This document shows, piece after piece, positions 1 to 21,699 of a DNA stretch of 24,000 nucleotides. The notes below the pieces were generated by a model. The model was not told the origin of the DNA, did no database searches, and worked only from the letters and a program-made list of their open reading frames with translations. This stretch comes from Gammaproteobacteria bacterium BRH_c0. Its GTDB lineage: Bacteria; Pseudomonadota; Gammaproteobacteria; Pseudomonadales; Porticoccaceae. The position numbers and the translations under genes were made by a program. The stretch is taken from positions 9,945 to 33,944 of the forward strand of contig LADM01000128.1 in assembly GCA_000961645.1 (NCBI GenBank), written 5' to 3'. Within the stretch, counting starts at the first letter, position 1, and every line of letters starts with the position of its first letter.

Positions 1-442
1 CAGCGATGCCGTAACTGTTCCTGAGCTTTGTGGCGGCGACCAGCAGGTTATCACGGCGCGCGTCGAGCAATGCTTCATCGCTAACTGTGCCGGGCGTCAC
101 GATACGCATCACCTTGCGCTCTACCGGCCCCTTGCTGGTGGCCGGGTCGCCAACCTGTTCGCAGATGGCGACGGAAACACCCTGTTTCACCAGCCGCGCC
201 AGATAACCCTCAACCGCATGGTAGGGTACACCGGCCATCGGGATCGGTTCGCCTGCGGATTTGCCCCGTGCGGTGAGGGTCACATCCAGCAAACGGGCGG
301 CTTTGCGCGCATCGTCAAAGAACAGCTCGTAGAAATCGCCCATGCGGTAGAACACCATCTCATCCGGGTGATCAGCCTTAATGCGAAGGTATTGCTGCAT
401 CATGGGGGTATGGGCGTCGGCAGCTTGTGCTGGTGAGGACAT
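1..442 (-). CDS. mutS: DNA mismatch repair protein MutS, N-terminal 147 codons; the rest runs off the left edge
   Basis: Absent from the supplied ORF track because there is no stop in the window. Reverse-strand translation from the ATG at 442 gives [100 protein letters not shown]... This is canonical MutS domain I, including the GDFYELF mismatch-binding motif. Confidence 0.95.
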
Positions 443-508
443 GGAGAACCTGTAGCGATTATTAAGCGGGTGATTCTACGTGATTGACAGTGGGTAGCGG
501 AACTACCG
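396..508. repeat. Direct repeat copy A: mutS start codon, first ~15 codons and ~65 bp upstream. Duplicated at 3082..3194.
   Basis: Hand alignment at a constant offset of 2686 bp. The core 405..486 matches 3091..3172 with 81/82 identical (single t/c difference at 411/3097). Flanks 396..404 and 487..508 match with scattered mismatches. Confidence 0.9.
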
Positions 509-520
509 GTGCCGGCTGGT

Positions 521-800
521 TTACGTTATGTTGTACTTTTGCGCCAGATGCAGATCGACGCAATGGTGGACACCAAAACCGAAGGCGTTGTGGCGTGGTT
601 TGCGATTGAAGCGAATGTTCTCTGGATCACCATATTCTTTTGAATCCCGTCCTGCCAGGGTGGTGCACATAAGAATCTTGTCACCTGGCATAACTTCAGC
701 GCCATTGATCTCGATTGATTGATGCAAGTTCTAAACGTGCTGACAGGTGGATAGGCGCGCATTAATCCGAGAAAAACCTTGATAGGAAATTTGTGGTCTT
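521..800 (-). pseudogene. Cytochrome P450 C-terminal remnant, frameshifted and 3-prime truncated
   Basis: Two minus-strand frames together read ...KVFLGLMRAYPPVSTFRT (K-helix ExxR / PPV region), then, after a frame change, IEINGAEVMPGDKILMCTTLAGRDSKEYGDPENIRFNRKPRHNAFGFGVHHCVDLHLAQ (heme-binding FGxGxHxCxG loop). The frame changes near the tcaatcaatc run at about 715-727. The reading frame stops 5 codons after LAQ, where a P450 normally continues for about 40 aa. No N-terminal ~300 aa is present. Confidence 0.7.
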
Positions 801-805
801 TGATC

Positions 806-1069
806 CTGATTGCCGCAGCTACCAGCTTCACAGTGCTGATGCTGGGGCCGACGCTGCTGGGGATTTGCCGGGGCTCTGGGAGCCGCAATCATTATGTGCT
901 TGGTGCCCAAGGGGCTCGTGCCCTTCGGACTTGCGGTCGTGTACACCAGGCAGGCGGTCGCCGCTGCTTTTGGGTAATCTATCGGCAGCTGTTGGGTGGG
1001 ATGATTGGCTGGCGTGGCGTCTTCTGGGTGCTAGTCCCGATTATTGTTGGTTGGCTTAACTTGGCTTAA
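806..1069 (+). pseudogene. Possible MFS-type transporter fragment with multiple frameshifts
   Basis: Hydrophobic segments are spread over two plus-strand frames: ...GFAGALGAAIIMCLVPKGLVPFGLAV... and ...IYRQLLGGMIGWRGVFWVLVPIIVGWL. The latter resembles the MFS GP-LGG-x-GWR-x-F-x-(I/V)-N-x-P region. There is no intact ORF and no start. Assignment is by eye only. Confidence 0.35.
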
Positions 1070-1086
1070 ACCAAATAAAGTAACTT

Positions 1087-2349
1087 TTATTCGATCCGAA
1101 AGTCAGTGCTCAAAGCCCGCCAATGCGCTTCTAACTGCTCTTTATGGTTATGCTGCATGGGCAGGTCTGTGAGTGCTGATGTCCATAGTGTCCTGGCTTT
1201 GTCGAGGGTGTCGTTCAGGTGAGGCTTGATTGCGCGCCAAGGTATGTCTGCTTTTTCTGACCAGGTCTTGAAATCTCCAAGGTTTGCCTTGTACCAGTCT
1301 TTGTTATTCCCCAAATTCAGCGCCAACAGCCGTTCTCCAGCGATGTACGTTTTAGTGGTGAGTATGTCGTAGGCCGGGGACAGTTCCGGTGTGCTCTTGT
1401 CGGGGTAGATCACGCTCCAGTTTTTCAGATGAGCATCGCCATTGGCTAGCAATATGTTCACCAGTAGTCGGCGGGCGAATTGCTGTACATTGGCCAAGGG
1501 GTCACCGGTGTACTGATAGAGGACTTTGCCAATCTGTTCTGCGTTGGCGCTGTCGTATTTTTCATGGGGATACTTGACCAGAATTTGCGCGAAATCCTCC
1601 ATGTGTATTCGCTGGCTGTTGTGTCTGTCGAAGCGGCGTATGGCAAAGGCAAATTGCTCGTTGGGGAGGTTGATGGGAGGTAGTGCTCCCAGCTTCTCAA
1701 TCTCTACCAAGCGAATATCGGGGATGTCGATGCCAGCCAATTCTGCCAGCCGCATTGCTGTGTATTCGTTCAACGGCACATTAGCGTGTTTGGTGGATGG
1801 GGTTTTGACGATCCAGTCTCCGAGATCTCCCGATTTGGCTATCTGATAGCGCCCTTCCTTTTCCCGCATGGAGAACTTCATCTGGATGCCTGCCAGAGAG
1901 AAGCGATTGGTCTGGTCTTGTACTGCGGGTTTGATCGCCCTGGCGTTGCCTATGGCGTTGAGAACGTAGCTGGGTATTTCGCCTGGATCTAGCGGCGTCG
2001 CGATCACCGCACCAGGCAGATCCTGCCCCAAGTATGTGAATAACTTAAATTCGTTATCGATATGAATCTTCAGCATTTGCGCTAGCAGCTCGCGCAATGC
2101 GCCTTCAGGTAGAAGATTCGACAGAACCGGGTGTAATCGTTGCCGCCTTGCCCATGGTGTTCGCAGTACTTTATTGACGTGGGGGAAAGTAGGGTGGGTA
2201 ATAAGAGTGAATGTAGGCCGCGAGTTGTCGGCGATAAACTCTGGTGCAAAGTGAAGAACATTGCGCCCATCCTGGAATCCTGTCAGGTATCCGACAGTGG
2301 CATTGTGGAGACTGAGTTTGAGCACGCTTGCGTCCAGCACGGTCGTCAT
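1087..2349 (-). CDS. hipA: HipA-like serine/threonine kinase toxin (type II TA)
   Basis: 420-aa ORF. The N-terminal HipA coupling region reads LHNATVGYLT...HFAPEFI. The loop FSLAGIQMKFSM is the counterpart of HipA SLAGAQxK. The catalytic motif reads NGDAHLKNWSVIY. The start overlaps the upstream HTH gene by 4 bp (ATGA). Confidence 0.9.
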   Translation of the reverse strand: MTTVLDASVLKLSLHNATVGYLTGFQDGRNVLHFAPEFIADNSRPTFTLITHPTFPHVNKVLRTPWARRQRLHPVLSNLLPEGALRELLAQMLKIHIDNEFKLFTYLGQDLPGAVIATPLDPGEIPSYVLNAIGNARAIKPAVQDQTNRFSLAGIQMKFSMREKEGRYQIAKSGDLGDWIVKTPSTKHANVPLNEYTAMRLAELAGIDIPDIRLVEIEKLGALPPINLPNEQFAFAIRRFDRHNSQRIHMEDFAQILVKYPHEKYDSANAEQIGKVLYQYTGDPLANVQQFARRLLVNILLANGDAHLKNWSVIYPDKSTPELSPAYDILTTKTYIAGERLLALNLGNNKDWYKANLGDFKTWSEKADIPWRAIKPHLNDTLDKARTLWTSALTDLPMQHNHKEQLEAHWRALSTDFRIE

Positions 2350-2666
2350 GCCTCGTCCTCAAGTAGTCCCTTCCAGGGGTTTTCTGCCCCAGAGGACGAA
2401 GGAGTTTGTTCCGTTTCAGTGCTGCTTGGCTTATTCGCTGTGTTGCTCAGCAGCTCGCGCACGGCCTGTAGCTTTTCTTGAGGAATAAGCATGAGTTCCA
2501 ATTTCAGCCCTTTTGCCACCAGTTCCAGTGTGTCCAGGCGCGGGTTACCTTCAGCCTCCAGCCGCTGGTATTGCTGGCGAGCCATGCCGACTTTTAGCGT
2601 CATGTCTTCTTGTTTAAGACGTAACGCTTTACGGCGGGCTCTCAGTTGTTCGTGAATGCTGCTCAT
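2346..2666 (-). CDS. hipB: XRE-family HTH antitoxin (HipB-like) with an acidic, Trp-containing C-terminal tail
   Basis: 106-aa ORF. The HTH region reads LRARRKALRLKQEDMTLKVGMARQQYQRLEAEGNPRLDTLELVAKGLKLEL. It is translationally coupled to the hipA-like gene. The tail reads ...SSGAENPWKGLLEDEA. Confidence 0.85.
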   Translation of the reverse strand: MSSIHEQLRARRKALRLKQEDMTLKVGMARQQYQRLEAEGNPRLDTLELVAKGLKLELMLIPQEKLQAVRELLSNTANKPSSTETEQTPSSSGAENPWKGLLEDEA

Positions 2667-2674
2667 GGCTTAGG

Positions 2675-2789
2675 GTGATCGGCTACGGGAGTGATACTTG
2701 GCGTGTGTGATACATATTAGTTGCTTTTTTTAACATTGCAATTAATGTGTTGCTATTTTATAAAAAAGAAGCAAAAGAGTTGCTATTTT
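2675..2789. promoter_or_regulatory. hipB-hipA upstream region with two sets of phased direct repeats (candidate operators)
   Basis: GTGAT(A/C) occurs at 2675, 2691 and 2707, with 16-bp spacing. GTTGCT(A/T)TTTT occurs at 2720..2730, 2749..2759 and 2779..2789, with 29-30 bp spacing. All lie 10-125 bp upstream of the hipB ATG (2666, minus strand) in an AT-rich tract. Confidence 0.4.
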
Positions 2790-3056
2790 GGTGGGGTGTC
2801 AGAGTATGGCTGGATTGGCGTGGTATACAAATGCTGTGCTGTGCCATGTTTCCGCCTGAAGAAATGCAGTGATGATGGCCGATCCTTAAGCTGGAAGCGC
2901 CATAGTAGGCCTCTTGGGGATGGCATCGTATCTGCCTCAAGTAGTCGGGAGGTTCTCTAAATACTGGGTGTGTGTGGATCAAGAATTGACCGATTTGATG
3001 CCCAGAATTAGTGTAGATTTTAGTATAGGTTGCCCTGTAAATATTTATAAAAAATA

Positions 3057-3128
3057 TTATAAATCAATGGTAAAGCACCAATGCATGATTGGGGTACGGG
3101 CGTCGGCAGCTTGTGCTGGTGAGGACAT
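3057..3128 (-). pseudogene. mutS 5-prime remnant: 13 mutS codons fused to 10 unrelated codons
   Basis: Reverse translation from the ATG at 3128 gives [13 protein letters not shown], then IMHWCFTIDL and a stop. The first 13 aa match the true MutS N-terminus at 442 except for H11R. The remnant sits in repeat copy B and has the same upstream sequence as the real gene. Confidence 0.8.
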
Positions 3129-3194
3129 GGAGAACCTGTAGCGATTATTAAGCGGGTGATTCTACGTGATTGGTCAGGGATTGCGGAACCACTG
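3082..3194. repeat. Direct repeat copy B of the mutS start and upstream region
   Basis: See copy A (396..508). The core 3091..3172 is 81/82 identical to 405..486. Confidence 0.9.
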
Positions 3195-3284
3195 TCAACC
3201 GATAATCATCGCGTCTGCATAGGTAGCGTGAATATGCCCAGGGGTTGCCGACCAAACCTGACGCCTTCGAAGCCATTGGACGCA

Positions 3285-3338
3285 ATAGACAGTCTTCTGA
3301 CAATTGACAGTCTTCTGACAATAGATCGCCTTCTAACA
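3285..3338. repeat. 18-bp tandem repeat x3
   Basis: The units are atagacagtcttctgaca (3285..3302), attgacagtcttctgaca (3303..3320) and atagatcgccttctaaca (3321..3338). Units 1 and 2 differ at 1 position; unit 3 is more diverged. Confidence 0.85.
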
Positions 3339-3398
3339 GTACCAATGTAAGTGCTAGCGTTGAGGATTCACTATTACCTGTTTTTTAAAGCGCCAGGG

Positions 3399-4361
3399 CT
3401 AGTCGTTATCCGGTTGAGAGCGGCGCCACTGCCCGGGTGTGGAATGGAATGTGTTGCGAAAAGCCCGGCTAAATGATGCCTCTGACTCGTAGCCAACCTC
3501 ATGGGCAATATTGACAATGCTGAGAGGTGATTCACGCAGCCTGACTGCCGCAAGCTGGAGGCGCCATTGGCTGAGATAGCGCATGGGCGGAAGCCCGACC
3601 AGTTGGGTGAAGCGTTCAGCAAAGGCGGAGCGCGACAGGTTGGCTGATTTCGCCAATTCGTCCGTGGTCCATTGATGTGCCGGTTGGCGATGTAGCTGGG
3701 CCAGGGCTTTGCCAACTTTGGGGTCGCGTAAACCTGCGAGCCAGCCTGTGTTGCTGGCCGGGAGTGTGAGCAGGTATCGGCGCAGCGCTTCCACAAACAG
3801 CAGTTCCGCCAGTTTGCCAAGAATGGTGGCGGACCCTACGCCACCGCGGGAAAACTCCTGCGCCGCATGCTGAAAGGTACTTGCCATCCAGTTGTCTGAA
3901 TCAGCCTGGCCAACATTGAGCTGGAGCAACGATGGCAGCGAATTGATCAGTGGATTGTCTGGGATATCGCAGCCGAGAAAGCCGCAGATGATATGGCAGG
4001 GTTCTCCACCACCGCCGAAATGTAACAGTGCCGGGCCAGAGGCGTTATCTGTGTTGATAAGGTGATCAATGCTGGCCGGACGCAGCCCTTTTTTGCTGGC
4101 CAGTATATGCCTGCCGTTTTGCGGCAAAAGAACGATATCACCGCTTTGCAGTTTATGGGGAAGTTCAGCGCCACTGCCCAGATACAGCTCGCCGCTAACG
4201 ATGTAGTGGTAGGCGATGATGGCTGTCGGCACAGCACCATAGGGCTTGCAATCATCGGGTGTTATTTGCGCTTCAATACACCAGGGTGCGGTGAAACGGG
4301 CATCGAGAAAGACGCTGCTGGAAAATCGTATGGTGGCAATAATATCGGATAACACGTCCAT
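3399..4361 (-). CDS. AraC-family transcriptional regulator with N-terminal cupin-type sensor domain
   Basis: 320-aa ORF. The N-terminus MDVLSDIIATIRFSSSVFLDARFTAPWCIE is typical of the cupin/AraC_binding_2 class. The C-terminal double HTH reads WTTDELAKSANLSRSAFAERFTQLVGLPPMRYLSQWRLQLAAVRLRESPLSIVNIAHEVGYESEASFSRAFRNTF. Confidence 0.9.
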   Translation of the reverse strand: MDVLSDIIATIRFSSSVFLDARFTAPWCIEAQITPDDCKPYGAVPTAIIAYHYIVSGELYLGSGAELPHKLQSGDIVLLPQNGRHILASKKGLRPASIDHLINTDNASGPALLHFGGGGEPCHIICGFLGCDIPDNPLINSLPSLLQLNVGQADSDNWMASTFQHAAQEFSRGGVGSATILGKLAELLFVEALRRYLLTLPASNTGWLAGLRDPKVGKALAQLHRQPAHQWTTDELAKSANLSRSAFAERFTQLVGLPPMRYLSQWRLQLAAVRLRESPLSIVNIAHEVGYESEASFSRAFRNTFHSTPGQWRRSQPDND

Positions 4362-15371: not shown

Positions 15372-17582
15372 CTAACGCCGAGACTGCTCGATTGCCAATT
15401 GAAGATCAGCAACTCGGTCAGCGAATTCACCATCTTGCATGCTTGCCAAGCGCGCGGTCACATGGTCCCAATCGAGAAACCGAGTAACGGTCTCTTTGGC
15501 GAGAGGGTAATAGACTTTGTCACTTATCAACCAGCTCCTAAGCTGGTTCAGGATAGCAAGAAAGCCCTCGTTGGATTCGCTATATTCTCTAACCCACTCC
15601 ACAGCTTGATTGTCTTCAGTTAAGTCTAACCAACCATATAGATAGGCTGAAATATTCGGCAGATTTGGGATCAGCTCTTTTGTATCTTGTCGGCTTAGGC
15701 GCTCTTTCAAGATATCAATAGCTTCATCCAGAACCTCATCCGAAATTTCCCATTGCTCTGAACTCTCTGCTTCGTCTCCAATTCTTCCATGGCGAGAAAG
15801 TTGACTTCTGAAGAACACTCCAACCAACCAATTGATGGCCTTTCCCTCGCGTGCTATCTGTCGGAAAACCGCTGCCTGCCTCTCGGGATTCAATTCCCCT
15901 AATCGCTCAAGGCAGCTTTTCGCAACATCGTTGGCAATCCTGTCAGGCGAGAAAATGAATGCATTAAGCCCGTGATTCTTTTTCATCGCAAAATCCATCA
16001 TTCCGGCTAGCGCTAGGACTATTCCAGCCAGCTGATCTTCATCAAGATCTGATATGTACTTATCGTCTAGCCTATCAAGCACATGCTCAAACCATGTTCT
16101 ACCTGAATTGCGACGCTTCATCGCTTCTTCGGTAAGGCGAGTCGTTAATTGCGCGACATCTTCGCGAGCCATTTCCAATAGAGTATTGAACTCTTGATCT
16201 GGCATGACGGTCTTTGGTCCTGTAAGCGCAAAATAAAATCGATAGTGTAATGGGCTGCCAAGCCGTTTAAGACCGATTGTTTCAGAAACTGCCGACGGAC
16301 TAATCGGGTTAAAAACACGCGCAACGGCTTCTTCTTCAACAGCTACGCCGGGAATGAAACGTTGCAAACACCAAATTGAACCAGTTGACTCCCGGTCTTC
16401 TGAAGGTAAGAGCATCTTTAGCTCTTCACCCATTTTTGCTTTTTCATCTTTTGAAACGGTCGCGTCTCTCGTAATCAATACGGAACGAACCGATAGGTAA
16501 ACCTCAAGCCACTTATATAGTTTATAGTGTGTAGTTTTGATCAGTTGCAGACGGCAAAAATCCGGGAAGTACACATCGTCTTTAACCTGTGGGAACACAA
16601 AACGAATACTGTTCAAAGAAAGTTTGACTTCACGCGGCGTGGATAATCCCTCGCCTTCCCGGTCGACGGCCGACATTAAATCTTCCAATAATGCACCCTC
16701 TAAATTTTTGCCCATTACTTCGCGATAGATGGCTTTCGCCTCTTCTAAGAACTGAGTTCGAAGATCGAATGGCTCTGGAAGTGGAATATTGAAGGTGAGT
16801 TGCACAATTTTCTGAAGAAAAAGATCTCCATCCGCAACTTTAAGGCCTGTCGTCAGCGCATGGGCTAAGACCTCTCTGTCATAACACATCAGGTAAGCGA
16901 CTCTTGGAAAGTCAGCGACCGAACGAACCAACCGAATGACCTCGACCGCTTGTTCAGGTTCGAGGCGGTCAAGATCGTCGAGTATGATAACAAAGCCAAT
17001 ATCTAATTCTTGAAACTTGTGCGCTAATTCTTGCTTAATCTCAGATGGGGTTGGCTCCAAAGGTAACACTTGATCTGCCGCATTTGCCCCTGCTTCCAGA
17101 ACACCACCCAAAGCCTGTGCGCCAGGAATAACGTACCCAGCAACGTTTGCAACCGAAGCGATCCTGCGGGCCGTCTTTGGTCCATAGGCACGGAGTAGTC
17201 GGCCGACATTGGCCATCCTTTCTTTCATTAGGTTCGCTTGCTCTCCACTAGCTAACGCGATTTGTTCTTCTCTCTTCTTCAATATTGCCGTCATTGGCTC
17301 CAGCAAGGACGAGACCAAAGACGAAGTATCCCCATTCAGCCATGGCGCGATTGTAATGGTATGAATTCCATCATCCTGTGCGACCTCTAGTTCGGCTCGA
17401 AGGAAGTTCAAGAGTGATGTCTTGCCTGAGCCCCACCGACCCTCAAGTCCAATGACCATGCCATCACCTTTCGATGCATCAATGATTGATGGCGCGAGTC
17501 GTTTGGCTATGCCTGCGAACCCGAACTGATCCTTTGCCTCGTCTTCGAGTGCGCGGTCTGAATCCAGAGCTGTCGTCATCAC
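15372..17582 (-). CDS. KAP-family P-loop NTPase
   Basis: 736 aa. Walker A is GLEGRWGSGKTSLLNF. Walker B and its context read GFVIILDDLDRLEPEQAVEVIRLVRSVADFPRVAYLMCYDREVL, characteristic of KAP NTPases. A long helical C-terminal region follows. GGAGAAG precedes the ATG. Spot GC counts are about 37-50%, versus 60-65% in neighbouring genes. Confidence 0.9.
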   Translation of the reverse strand: MMTTALDSDRALEDEAKDQFGFAGIAKRLAPSIIDASKGDGMVIGLEGRWGSGKTSLLNFLRAELEVAQDDGIHTITIAPWLNGDTSSLVSSLLEPMTAILKKREEQIALASGEQANLMKERMANVGRLLRAYGPKTARRIASVANVAGYVIPGAQALGGVLEAGANAADQVLPLEPTPSEIKQELAHKFQELDIGFVIILDDLDRLEPEQAVEVIRLVRSVADFPRVAYLMCYDREVLAHALTTGLKVADGDLFLQKIVQLTFNIPLPEPFDLRTQFLEEAKAIYREVMGKNLEGALLEDLMSAVDREGEGLSTPREVKLSLNSIRFVFPQVKDDVYFPDFCRLQLIKTTHYKLYKWLEVYLSVRSVLITRDATVSKDEKAKMGEELKMLLPSEDRESTGSIWCLQRFIPGVAVEEEAVARVFNPISPSAVSETIGLKRLGSPLHYRFYFALTGPKTVMPDQEFNTLLEMAREDVAQLTTRLTEEAMKRRNSGRTWFEHVLDRLDDKYISDLDEDQLAGIVLALAGMMDFAMKKNHGLNAFIFSPDRIANDVAKSCLERLGELNPERQAAVFRQIAREGKAINWLVGVFFRSQLSRHGRIGDEAESSEQWEISDEVLDEAIDILKERLSRQDTKELIPNLPNISAYLYGWLDLTEDNQAVEWVREYSESNEGFLAILNQLRSWLISDKVYYPLAKETVTRFLDWDHVTARLASMQDGEFADRVADLQLAIEQSRR

Positions 17583-19239: not shown

Positions 19240-19309
19240 TGGGAGCCGCCGGTTGCTACTGCGGGCCGCGCGACTGGCAATAACCAGAAACACTACTGAC
19301 AGGTTGATA

Positions 19310-20764
19310 ATGGCTATCGATTGGAAGGCCTATAACCCCGAGGGGTTGTATGACGAGATCATCAGTTCACCCGGTAACCCACGCGTACCCGCTAAAAGCC
19401 TGGTTTCTTATCTGAGATCCCTCAGCGATGAGCAGCTGCAGGCGCGGCGCGCCAGTGCCGATGCCGTGATCAAGCAGATGGGCATTACCTTCACGGTTTA
19501 TTCCGAAGAGGGCAATATCGATCGATCCTGGCCCTTTGACATTATTCCCCGCGTTATCGCCCTCAAGCAGTGGCAAAAAACGGCCGCCGGGCTGGAGCAG
19601 CGCCTGCGCGCTTTGAATCTGTTTATTGACGATCTCTATCACGATCAGAAAATCGTCAAGGACAAGGTATTCCCCGAGTACATATTGCAGGAGTCGAAAA
19701 ACTTCCGCCCCGAGTGTGTGGGCATATCGCCTCCTTTTGGGGTGTGGGCGCATATTTGCGGCACCGATCTGGTGCGCGACAAGGATGGCCGGTTTTATGT
19801 GCTGGAGGATAACCTGCGGGTGCCTTCCGGCGTTTCCTACATGCTCGAAAACCGTGCAATTACCAAAAGGGTGCTGCCGGATCTGTTTGATACCGAAAAA
19901 ATCCTGCCGGTAAATGACTACACCTCGAACCTGCTCGAAGCCCTGACGTCGCTGTCGCCACGCAAGATCAGTCGCCCTTCCATCGTGGTGCTGACACCGG
20001 GCATCTACAACTCCGCCTATTTTGAACATGCCTTCCTCGCCCAGCAGATGGGCGCCGAGCTGGTGGAGGGCAGCGATCTGATGGTGGCGGATGACGAGTG
20101 TGTGTACATGAAAACCGTCGATGGCCTGGAGCGGGTGGATGTCATCTACCGTCGCATCGATGACCTGTTTATCGACCCCGAGGTGTTCAACGCGGAGTCG
20201 GTGCTGGGTGTGCCGGGACTGATGCGGGCCTGGAAAAAGGGCAATGTGGCCCTCGCCAATGCGCCGGGCGCCGGCGTGGCGGACGACAAGGTGGTGTATG
20301 CCTTTGTGCCGCAAATCATCAAGTACTACCTGGATGAAGACCCGCTTATTCCCAATGTCGAAACCTATCTGTGCGTCAACGACAAGGAGCGGGAATACGT
20401 GCTGGCCAACCTCGACAAACTGGTGGTCAAGCCCGCCAATGAATCGGGCGGGGCGGGCATGTTGATTGGGCCGCATTCCACCAAAAAAGAGCGCACCCTG
20501 TTTGCCGAGCTGATTCGCAAGAATCCCCGCAATTATATCGGTCAGCCTACCCTGAGCCTCTCCACGGTTCCCACGTTGGTGGACGGCAACGACCTTGAGC
20601 CGCGCCATGTGGATTTGCGTCCCTTTATTATCCAGGCGGAAAAAACCTCGGTCACCACTGGCGGGCTGACCCGCGTGGCGATGAAGCGCGGCTCCCTGGT
20701 GGTGAATTCTTCCCAGGGCGGTGGTAGCAAGGACACCTGGATTGTCGATACGGGGGCTAAATAA
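19310..20764 (+). CDS. Circularly permuted type-2 ATP-grasp protein (COG2308-like)
   Basis: The start is moved to the ATG at 19310 (MAIDWKAYNPEGLYDEI...). Family-typical segments include ITFTVYSEEGNIDRSWPFDIIPRVI, LFIDDLYHDQKI, GTDLVRDKDGRFYVLEDNLRVPSGVSYMLENR, VVKPANESGGAGMLIGP and LVVNSSQGGGSKDTWIV. Confidence 0.9.
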   Translation: MAIDWKAYNPEGLYDEIISSPGNPRVPAKSLVSYLRSLSDEQLQARRASADAVIKQMGITFTVYSEEGNIDRSWPFDIIPRVIALKQWQKTAAGLEQRLRALNLFIDDLYHDQKIVKDKVFPEYILQESKNFRPECVGISPPFGVWAHICGTDLVRDKDGRFYVLEDNLRVPSGVSYMLENRAITKRVLPDLFDTEKILPVNDYTSNLLEALTSLSPRKISRPSIVVLTPGIYNSAYFEHAFLAQQMGAELVEGSDLMVADDECVYMKTVDGLERVDVIYRRIDDLFIDPEVFNAESVLGVPGLMRAWKKGNVALANAPGAGVADDKVVYAFVPQIIKYYLDEDPLIPNVETYLCVNDKEREYVLANLDKLVVKPANESGGAGMLIGPHSTKKERTLFAELIRKNPRNYIGQPTLSLSTVPTLVDGNDLEPRHVDLRPFIIQAEKTSVTTGGLTRVAMKRGSLVVNSSQGGGSKDTWIVDTGAK

Positions 20765-21699
20765 TGCTGTCGCGAGTTGCAGAACGCATTTACTGGATGA
20801 GCCGCTATCTGGAGCGGGTGGAAAATACTGCCCGGCTGATGGGGGTTTATACCAATCTGCTGATGGATATGCCTGCCGGAGTCAATATCGGCTGGTACAA
20901 CCTGGTCAGTCTCAATGACGCGGAGGAGTGGTTTGATGCTCACTATCGCGTGCGGGACGAGCGCAATGTCATGAAGTTTTTACTGGCTGACCGCGATTAT
21001 CCCGGCTCCATTGTCAACTCCCTGCAGGGCGTGCGCGAGAATATCCGCACCAGCCGCGATGTGGTGCCAGCGGAATCCTGGGAATACATCAACGAGCTTG
21101 CGCTGTACGTGCAGGATAACCAGAGCGCCGGAATCAATCGCGGGCAGCGCCACGAATTTATTGCCCAGGTGATTAAATCTTGCCAGCAACTGCAGGGGCT
21201 TTTTGTGAGCTCGATGATTGACGGGCAGGCGAAGAATTTTTTGCGCCTGGGGCGCAATATCGAGCGCGCTGATATGACCACCCGTATCCTCGATGCGGGT
21301 ATAGGCGTTGTGCTTGAAAATAACGGTAATGTATTGCCGACCACGGAATCCATTATCTGGGCCAATGTGCTGTATTCCCTCAGTGCTTATCTGCCCTATA
21401 CCAAGCGCCAGCGCAAATCCGTGAAGGGGGCGAGGGTGGCCAGGTACCTGCTCGAAGATGCCACCTTGCCGCGCACCATCCGCTTCTGCGGTGAAAGCAT
21501 GGCCACTGTCTGCAAGACGCTGCCGCGCAACAAAAAGGTGCTGAAAAAAATTGACCAGATTCGCAAAAGTCACTACCCGCCACTGGATGATGACAATGCG
21601 GTACTGGACGTTGGATTTAGCGACTACCTCAATGAGCTGCAATTGTTGATCGGCAGCGCCCACGAACTGTTTGCCGAAACCTGGTTTACCCTCGACTAG
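20764..21699 (+). CDS. Alpha-E domain protein (COG2307-like)
   Basis: The N-terminus MLSRVAERIYWMSRYLERVENTARL is the hallmark of alpha-E proteins. A second hallmark, FLRLGRNIERADMTTRILD, is also present. The gene overlaps the ATP-grasp stop by 1 nt (TAATG). Confidence 0.9.
   Translation: MLSRVAERIYWMSRYLERVENTARLMGVYTNLLMDMPAGVNIGWYNLVSLNDAEEWFDAHYRVRDERNVMKFLLADRDYPGSIVNSLQGVRENIRTSRDVVPAESWEYINELALYVQDNQSAGINRGQRHEFIAQVIKSCQQLQGLFVSSMIDGQAKNFLRLGRNIERADMTTRILDAGIGVVLENNGNVLPTTESIIWANVLYSLSAYLPYTKRQRKSVKGARVARYLLEDATLPRTIRFCGESMATVCKTLPRNKKVLKKIDQIRKSHYPPLDDDNAVLDVGFSDYLNELQLLIGSAHELFAETWFTLD

Follow-up and report, generated by a model that had tools for sequence, protein, structure and literature searches.

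Introduction

Hundreds of Beta- and Gammaproteobacteria harbour mobile elements within the HTPMMQQ-coding motif of the mismatch repair gene mutS, as described by Chu et al. (2017, mBio; PMC5296598). Such elements leave the host start orphaned upstream and give mutS a new promoter and start, and by residing in the mutS start they can toggle the bacterium between normal and mutator states. They range from 4 kb to >150 kb, some of them appear degraded, and examples include those of Vibrio splendidus 12B01, E. coli 536, P. putida F1 and B. multivorans CF2. The Tn6872-related integrative mobilizable elements (IMEs) of the Morganellaceae also lie next to mutS and have a 24-bp attachment (att) consensus, AACCTAcAaTTtAACCTACACTTA; in the same study, the SXT-type element Tn6512 carries hipBA as a stabilising module (PMC9058013). 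Here, we analyzed a 24,000-nucleotide stretch (hereafter, the window) of the Gammaproteobacteria bacterium BRH_c0 genome (Porticoccaceae; contig LADM01000128.1, positions 9,945 to 33,944), in which a 2.7-kb block carrying a hipBA-type toxin-antitoxin pair separates mutS from a second, orphaned copy of its start. This block is probably an integrase-less remnant of an integrative element that targeted the HTPMMQQ-coding mutS start; this remnant would have carried captured host flank and have been inserted later by Campbell-type recombination.

A duplicated mutS start used as an attachment site had been considered undescribed in the original prediction, which was made from the window alone. That view has to be given up: mutS HTPMMQQ elements with an orphaned start, as well as Tn6872-related IMEs next to mutS, are published in the two studies cited above. 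New in this locus are the variant architecture and the integrase-less remnants, insertion at the motif with an orphaned start being already known.

Duplication of the mutS start in the BRH_c0 window

Like the elements of Chu et al., the block is inserted in the first codons of mutS, with foreign DNA between an orphaned start and mutS. The described elements likewise occur in Gammaproteobacteria, carry variable cargo and decay, and relatives of the window carry integrase-bearing ones. However, they were found via an integrase located ≤300 bp from mutS, whereas the window has no integrase and a host-type mutS start, and its block of 2.7 kb is below their size range.

A repeat search of the window returned a pair of direct repeats at 396-506 and 3082-3192 (111 nt, spacing 2686, 90% identity). 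Alignment of 405-486 with 3091-3172 gave 81 identical positions of 82, with the sole mismatch at 411/3097, which confirms the predicted duplication, its offset and its near-identical core over the mutS start and upstream region. It includes a perfect run of 75 bp (412-486 = 3098-3172), for which the probability of a chance occurrence in 24 kb is negligible (~3e8 position pairs x 4^-75). Relative to mutS, the repeat spans ~15.7 codons and 44-64 bp 5' of the ATG. The two copies comprise the following features (strand in brackets, with a point where none is assigned):

1..442 (-): 5' part of mutS, first 147 codons, with the ATG at 442-440, the gene leaving the window (translation)
396..412 (-): intact HTPMMQ-coding core of the live gene, CAT ACC CCC ATG ATG CA (alignment, translation)
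412..486 (-): left perfect 75-bp copy, comprising TAGAAT, the 5' leader, mutS codons 1-10 and the first base of codon 11
487..520 (.): upstream flank of the left copy, ~58% like its counterpart 3173-3206 (alignment, direct reading)
3057..3128 (-): orphaned mutS start, a 23-codon open reading frame (ORF) (translation)
3082..3097 (-): degenerate core at the junction, GT ACC CCA ATC ATG CA, where mutS homology stops
3098..3172 (-): right perfect 75-bp copy, comprising the orphaned promoter, leader and codons 1-10 (alignment)

The duplication is real, since both copies are spanned by contigs that are 100% identical to the window (L001-L003, L005, L006 and L011-L014) and derive from several samples of Mont Terri rock-porewater and subsurface metagenomes and from two independent assembly sources (ENA and JGI). 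An assembly artefact, which the original prediction had named as a possible refutation, is therefore ruled out by the many independent assemblies that cross both copies. The recovered Logan contigs (L004, L007) end within the right copy. Contigs ending inside the repeat break at 3143 or 412, where a repeat of such length would be expected to branch an assembly graph. What look like variants in L012 and L013 turn out to be runs of N. In both of these JGI contigs mutS is called as split or truncated, and scaffold gaps are suspected here too, given that L013 has N runs elsewhere in the scaffold. All of the assemblies contain the integrated form only.

The left copy is the predicted functional host-type promoter and start of mutS. 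On the identical contigs L001 and L011 the full MutS has 863 amino acids with domains I-V and C, in agreement with the claim that the left copy belongs to an intact gene. The TAGAAT hexamer reads as a -10-like element, and was unflagged by the promoter scan. At 75 of 75 positions the live mutS start is identical to the orphaned host start, so it is not a distinct start of the kind that the elements of Chu et al. supply; both window starts are GC-rich and host-like, whereas the element starts are AT-rich.

In the right copy, the TPMMQ codons carry mismatches to the left copy at 4 of 16 positions (CAT ACC CCC ATG ATG CAG on the left vs CGT ACC CCA ATC ATG CAT on the right), and the sequence 3' of the core is AT-rich DNA unrelated to mutS or to the left-copy flank. 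The host homology breaks off inside the HTPMMQQ-coding motif and the orphaned host-derived start lies 5' of the inserted DNA, both as in the elements of Chu et al. The orphaned start is GC-rich, Ser/Ala-rich and resembles the mutS starts of other Porticoccaceae. Judged from these alignments, the recombination core is the ~14-17 bp coding (H)TPMMQ at the mutS-proximal end of the repeat (3082-3097 vs 396-411). We also considered the right copy as the recipient's own mutS joined illegitimately, and rejected this as it needs four substitutions within 16 nt of the most conserved motif beside 75 unchanged bases.

Beyond the common core, each copy has its own surroundings, namely the AraC flank and the element arm for the right copy, and the P450-fragment flank and mutS for the left copy. 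Immediately 5' of the perfect tract, 487-520 and 3173-3206 have GTTCCGC in common, in register and 18 nt before the TAGAAT hexamer, as well as a 10-mer in opposite orientation (CCACTGTCAA vs TTGACAGTGG). The predicted low GC of the DNA between the copies was correct in tendency: the region is mildly GC-poor (0.49-0.54 over 400-2400 and 0.45-0.48 over 2400-3400, vs ~0.55-0.60 nearby), but not at 42-43% throughout.

Candidate arm and attachment sites

At its TPMM codons, the orphaned start is joined to an AT-rich sequence of element type that begins with TTGGTGCTTT and continues with tandem AACCTAYAC-like sites. Three features belong to this part of the analysis:

2987..3081 (-): AT-rich element-side (P'-type) arm of the putative fossil left attachment site
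3008..3031 (-): within the arm, tandem site AACCTATACTA/AAATCTACACTAA, separated from the core by 51 nt
1051..1069 (.): tandem 10-bp repeat (TTGGCTTAAC x1.9), just 3' of hipA

We compared this arm with those of two other loci, Proteus faecis L069 and the metagenome locus L118. Strict-scoring local alignment was weak (p ~0.016 for L069, not significant for L118), after which similarity was judged by an in-register global test. In the latter, the window arm had 63% identity over 95 nt to the L069 arm (z=5.2, a value reached by 0 of 2000 shuffles), and a z of 2.6 to the L118 arm. A junction-motif scan of IMG/VR returned four phage contigs in which the core is followed by TGGGTG(C/T)nTTC, then by ~35 nt, and then by two tandem (A)CCTACGCC-like sites. 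In a seven-way alignment, the tandem motif of the window occurs at the same distance from the core in L069, L118 and the phage contigs L191, L208, L201 and L225. The AACCTAYA motif is also present 125-146 bp 5' of the mutS core in L027, L069, L104 and L118.

Tandem direct repeats are typical of the arm-type sites of tyrosine integrases, not of their crossover sites. The motifs of the window are tandem and direct, and the same type of motif occurs in phage Turba, the integrase of which shares 47% identity with the L191 enzyme; on these grounds they are candidate integrase arm-type sites. The phages Turba, KL4 and TRS1, with integrases 44-49% identical, lack the mutS core and use other attP sites. 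The repeat at 1051-1069 resembles TTACGCCAAATTTACGCCAAG in phage Turba and may be a pair of arm-type sites on the element tail; read on the opposite strand it gives TTAAGCCAA x2, similar to the paired TTACGCC arm sites of phage integrases of the Turba type. No attR-type arm or arm-type motif was found beside the left copy.

In L191 and L208, a 336-amino acid tyrosine integrase gene ends 10 bp before a ACCCCCATGATGCA core, as expected of attP. This integrase (L191:1-1140, L208:1-1550) matches only Phage_integrase in Pfam and is ~31% identical, over a short stretch, to the 415-amino acid type found beside mutS in relatives (see below). These contigs point to a second integrase family directed at the same mutS motif. 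The site appears to be used by at least two types of integrase: a 415-423-amino acid Arm-DNA-bind_2 type and, probably, the 336-amino acid phage type, whose use of mutS we infer from the attP-like core adjoining its gene, the sole basis for it.

Like the Tn6872-related IMEs, the block lies beside a mutS start, and its arm matches their att consensus at 18 of 24 positions (3031-3008); this is the best match of the window, the next best being 15, and a score of 18 was reached by 2 of 200 shuffles. L069 also has this att together with a copy of the mutS core. In contrast to the window, the Tn6872 elements are 20-70 kb long, carry int and an origin of transfer (oriT), and have their att 102 bp 5' of mutS. 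In the window, the att-like motif adjoins the orphaned start and is 2.6 kb away from the live gene.

Gene content of the 2.7-kb block

As predicted originally, the block consists of a hipBA-like pair and two dead gene fragments. The pair encodes full-length HipA and HipB, the products of the only intact genes of the block, and reads toward mutS:

1087..2349 (-): hipA, full-length HipA-family kinase toxin, 420 amino acids (HipA_C 1-213/213, 7.9e-50; Couple_hipA, 1.4e-14; TIGR03071)
2346..2666 (-): hipB, helix-turn-helix (HTH) antitoxin/repressor, 106 amino acids, overlapping hipA by 4 bp (HTH_3, 8.9e-8)
2700..2790 (-): hipBA promoter/operator region with palindromic AGCAA...TTGCT repeats (palindrome I1 at 2732-2789)
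521..727 (-): dead piece from the interior of a cytochrome P450 gene, truncated at both ends (Pfam p450 347-417/462, E=3e-4, below the curated cut-off)
~779..1060 (+): internal fragment of a major facilitator superfamily (MFS) transporter gene with two frameshifts, dead (MFS_1 67-164/347, E=6e-4, below the cut-off)

The match of the MFS fragment was obtained with a frameshift-corrected translation and its coordinates are approximate. The predicted organization is that of a type II toxin-antitoxin hipBA locus, with an HTH antitoxin gene followed by a two-domain HipA gene in one operon. The operator region has 15-22-nt matches to the sequence 5' of hipB in ~20 other hipBA loci. Between hipBA and the second host-type start lie ~645 bp of debris, made up of the element tail, the MFS fragment and the P450 fragment. 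An in-frame stop precedes the P450 fragment just 5' of it.

The predicted lack of an integrase was upheld by tblastn of the window with six family integrases, which detected no integrase remnant beyond noise at E<=10. An integrase of the L191/L208 type was not found in the window either, there is no tyrosine integrase within 300 bp of mutS, and the Tn6872 backbone int was not found in the window, in which no oriT search was made. A search for homologues of the 67-amino acid P450 fragment returned the fragment itself only, and no P450 or MFS homologues were present near mutS in any fetched locus, including 80 genome loci. A native position of the P450 gene upstream of the donor mutS is thus unsupported, the fragment being internal and having no such homologues near mutS. 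No relatives of the HipA protein were found in viral contigs.

The mutS start in related bacteria

MutS similarity places the organism of the window as a Porticoccaceae-like gammaproteobacterium. The closest relative found, L104, has a MutS with 93% amino acid identity, and its DNA homology to the window begins exactly at 412, in the His codon of HTPMMQQ. L104 has a different, AT-rich mutS start (MNTKESLDT); its downstream synteny with the window is 83% identical at the nucleotide level, and upstream synteny is absent. In L104, mutS is preceded by 935 bp of non-coding, partly AT-rich DNA (9066-10030), with AACAACCTACACTAGAAT ~95 bp before the start. No integrase was found in L104, nor an orphaned start within 10 kb, and the locus is probably another remnant, of the integrase-side type.

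Intact counterparts are found in more distant genomes. In L019 (MutS 82%), L105 (81%), L072 (Mixta), and in L099 and L102, two other bacteria reached via integrase homologues, a new AT-rich mutS start follows 4-53 bp after the end of an integrase gene and joins mutS at the same HTPMMQQ motif. The integrases contain Arm-DNA-bind_2 and Phage_integrase domains. In L105, L099 and L102 the integrase gene is preceded by a DUF1233 excisionase-like gene, directly in L105 and with a small HTH ORF between the two in L099 and L102. The cargo of the integrase-bearing elements includes restriction-modification and Gabija-like genes. The intact mutS-resident element of L099 (1-10000) encodes a DNA methylase, an Mrr-like nuclease, helicases and an MZB-domain protein, and that of L102 (860-10000) an OLD-TOPRIM ATPase and a UvrD helicase (Gabija-like). 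Other cargo at the same point in relatives, which the original prediction had proposed to look for, is therefore present and favours an insertion hotspot. A DNA search for the E. coli example with the Mixta integrase gave no match.

Among 80 metagenome loci with HipA relatives, hipBA stands directly before mutS in two, L118 and L135. L118 contains a 2.45-kb integrase-less unit (1543-4007), in which an orphaned start (MDANLSKTKPYTPMMH and a stop, ending ..TPMMH-stop) and an arm are followed by hipBA and then by an element-type mutS start (MKNKTEQHTPMMQQ). At the junction of the orphaned start, TACACCCCGATGATGCAT is followed directly by TGATAT, and a AACCTACAC motif is located 146 bp before the core. 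The unit looks like a complete non-autonomous element of the kind of cis-mobilizable elements (CIMEs). L135 (182-1866) is a gammaproteobacterial contig rich in AT, in which 72 bp separate the end of hipB-hipA from a mutS gene starting with MKNTTVQHTPMMQQ; the contig is short, which blurs the far junction.

The Proteus faecis locus L069 (8255-10032) contains an exact 14-bp mutS core (ACACCAATGATGCA) 1.7 kb 5' of the real core. This extra core is followed by the arm with a full Tn6872-type att, by a Fic-domain toxin gene with a small ORF on the opposite strand, and by half an att ~102 bp before mutS. Together, these parts have the appearance of an IME remnant combined with an attP-like fossil.

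Other features of the window

On the right-hand side, the block is bordered by two chromosomal features:

3173..3398 (.): host flank separating the AraC-family gene from the orphaned start
3399..4361 (-): gene for an AraC-family regulator (Cupin_6 and HTH_18), the right-hand chromosomal neighbour (Pfam)

In the intergenic host flank, an 18-bp tandem repeat (CAATAGACAGTCTTCTGA x2.4) occupies 3283-3325 and may be an array of binding sites for a regulator. Further away, two type IV minor pilin genes are located at 10948-11885, one of them with a ComP_DUS domain, that of a DNA-uptake-sequence receptor, a hint of natural competence. A 736-amino acid KAP-family P-loop NTPase is encoded at 15372-17582, where GC is the lowest of the window (0.43-0.50), and may represent another horizontally acquired or defence-related insertion. 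At 19253-21699, a gene for a circularly permuted ATP-grasp protein (CP_ATPgrasp_1/2) is followed by one for an Alpha-E domain protein, a conserved pair.

Origin of the hipBA block and alternative scenarios

The perfect 75-bp duplication of promoter and start is not a product of integrases of this kind; the elements of intact relatives supply a different, AT-rich start. We therefore propose a scenario in several steps. A tyrosine integrase would first have inserted an element at the core, probably in a former host or an ancestor. A defective derivative would then have kept the attL side (host flank, core, arm and hipBA) and lost the integrase side, by analogy with lambda-dgal. This derivative would have entered the present chromosome by RecA-type (Campbell-type) recombination in the shared promoter and start, inserting one 2686-bp unit with hybrid direct repeats on either side. 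Instead or additionally, gene conversion between two diverged promoter copies could have produced the perfect 75-bp tract. Two copies that have a common core, each with its own outer sequence on both sides, are the pattern that Campbell-type insertion would predict. As in lambda-dgal derivatives, one att side with the adjacent host DNA would be kept and the integrase side lost, and as in lambda-dgal heterogenotes, insertion by homology would duplicate the host flank as direct repeats that are unstable through repeat recombination. Unlike lambda-dgal, which serves as an analogy with no packaging or helper shown here, the captured host segment amounts to ~100 bp plus fragments.

Several observations weigh against this scenario. 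The P450 and MFS sequences are internal fragments and not a tidy captured upstream gene, so that extra rearrangements are needed. The ~30 bp 5' of the perfect tract are diverged yet related, with a common 7-mer and an inverted 10-mer, and fit no model cleanly. The arm sites are proposed solely from sequence resemblance, which is modest for L118 (z=2.6) and not significant between L069 and L118. The HipA proteins of the window, L118 and L135 form no exclusive group and have close relatives in other contexts; therefore, hipBA would be a recurrent, shuffled cargo and not the mark of a single element. No conspecific empty site, circle junction or intact parent element was found, and the single-copy site that the original prediction had suggested looking for did not turn up in this species, all population contigs being identical. 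Likewise, the 23 contigs in each exact-protein look-up (AraC and HipA, the two sets overlapping) are all clonal, so the order of events is unobserved.

Less probable, although a serious competitor, is decay of the element in place followed by a patch. According to this alternative, the element integrated in this lineage, giving the order AraC gene, host start, attL, hipBA and, at the far end, integrase and mutS, after which the integrase end and the element start were replaced by DNA of an element-free relative. A homologous crossover in mutS and an illegitimate join 3' of hipA (homology-facilitated illegitimate recombination) would have brought in the P450 fragment and the host-type promoter and start. 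This accounts for the same final structure and the same attL evidence, and the P450 fragment is cut at the junction like the end of incoming DNA. mutS genes are exchanged between strains, and natural transformation is plausible given that the window encodes type IV minor pilins, including one with a DNA-uptake receptor domain of the ComP_DUS type. However, the donor must already have had the dead MFS and P450 fragments 5' of mutS, and no donor-like genome was found, the 80 genome loci and the other fetched loci being without P450 or MFS homologues beside mutS. A patch alone would also leave the 75-bp perfect identity next to low upstream identity unexplained. The genome contig scan was without close relatives; L019 ranked first (82%) and extends upstream for 302 bp only. 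An exact 40-mer search of metagenome contigs was negative, in a collection that evidently does not contain even the home contigs.

We consider it very unlikely that the 113-bp repeats themselves are the attL and attR of a site-specific island that is still mobilisable by an integrase encoded elsewhere. Direct repeats of a gene terminus do bracket foreign DNA here; integrase-less, att-flanked elements mobilised in trans, such as CIMEs and some IMEs, are a known class, and L118, with both arms present, looks like a member of it. Nevertheless, the repeat is not an attachment site: its TPMMQ end, the part richest in mismatches, is followed by an element-type arm in the right copy only. The short TPMMQ sequence acts as the core here and shows degeneracy in the right copy (4/16 mismatches), the left copy has no element-side arm or motif that could act as attR in an attL x attR reaction, intact elements leave the host promoter unduplicated, and the window has no integrase. 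The originally predicted footprint of site-specific integration at the mutS 5' end is thus retained with a much shorter core (~14-17 bp), and of its two suggested fates for the block, the decayed island is favoured over mobilisation in trans, given the degenerate core and the missing attR-type arm. Least credible of all is that a Tn6872-type IME remnant recombined at the tandem AACCTAYAC site beside an incidental mutS-like core: despite the 18/24 match to the published consensus at 3031-3008 and the Fic-toxin block of L069, which is bracketed by such repeats ~102 bp 5' of mutS, host homology stops at the core and the tandem site comes 51 nt later, the sequence between them is neither mutS nor left flank, no second copy of the motif was found near the live mutS, tandem direct repeats typify arm-type rather than crossover sites, and this idea is better viewed as the same element family seen from a different landmark.

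Taking the Campbell-type scenario as the preferred one, mutS would be expressed from its own host-type promoter, with mismatch repair uncoupled from the element, and the orphaned promoter would point into hipBA. With neither an integrase gene nor an integrase-side arm detectable, canonical Int/Xis excision of the block is unlikely. Homologous recombination between the 75-bp repeats could still delete the block precisely; such deletants would be selected against by the predicted toxicity of HipA once the labile HipB is lost, and we propose that hipBA is therefore the part that survives.

Like CIMEs, the block has no integrase or transfer genes, appears deletion-derived and keeps an attachment arm. 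Unlike CIMEs, which keep both attL and attR, it has one recognisable arm, of attL type, and its other end is a host-type promoter and start, so its mobilisation in trans is doubtful; L118, which has both arms, fits this class well. The integrative and conjugative elements (ICEs) of the SXT/R391 (Tn6512-type) family in the 5' end of prfC also target the 5' end of a housekeeping gene that stays functional. They differ from the block in target gene and integrase, and in that an SXT ICE supplies a new 5' end, whereas the window has a host duplicate.

Implications for mutS-resident elements

Surveys based on integrases overlook integrase-less remnants such as those of the window, L118, L104 and L069. 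For annotation, an extra 'mutS start' 5' of mutS should be read as a scar and not as a gene.

A more speculative and rather improbable extension is that the window, L118 and L135 harbour, in their hipBA blocks at mutS, members of a class of miniature integrase-less elements. Such elements would make use of integrases that target mutS; alternatively, the integrase-side arm would have been swapped for a captured host mutS promoter and start, as in the window. If so, the swap would permit insertion and persistence via host homologous recombination, with mismatch repair natively controlled and retention enforced by HipA. The host would in this way 'domesticate' a mutS-resident element and escape element-controlled switching of its mutation rate.

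The locus shows a possible end-state of the association between mutS and its mobile elements in an uncultured subsurface gammaproteobacterium. In this end-state, the integrase would have been lost and a toxin-antitoxin pair would remain as the last cargo, while the host would have regained its own promoter and start for mutS.

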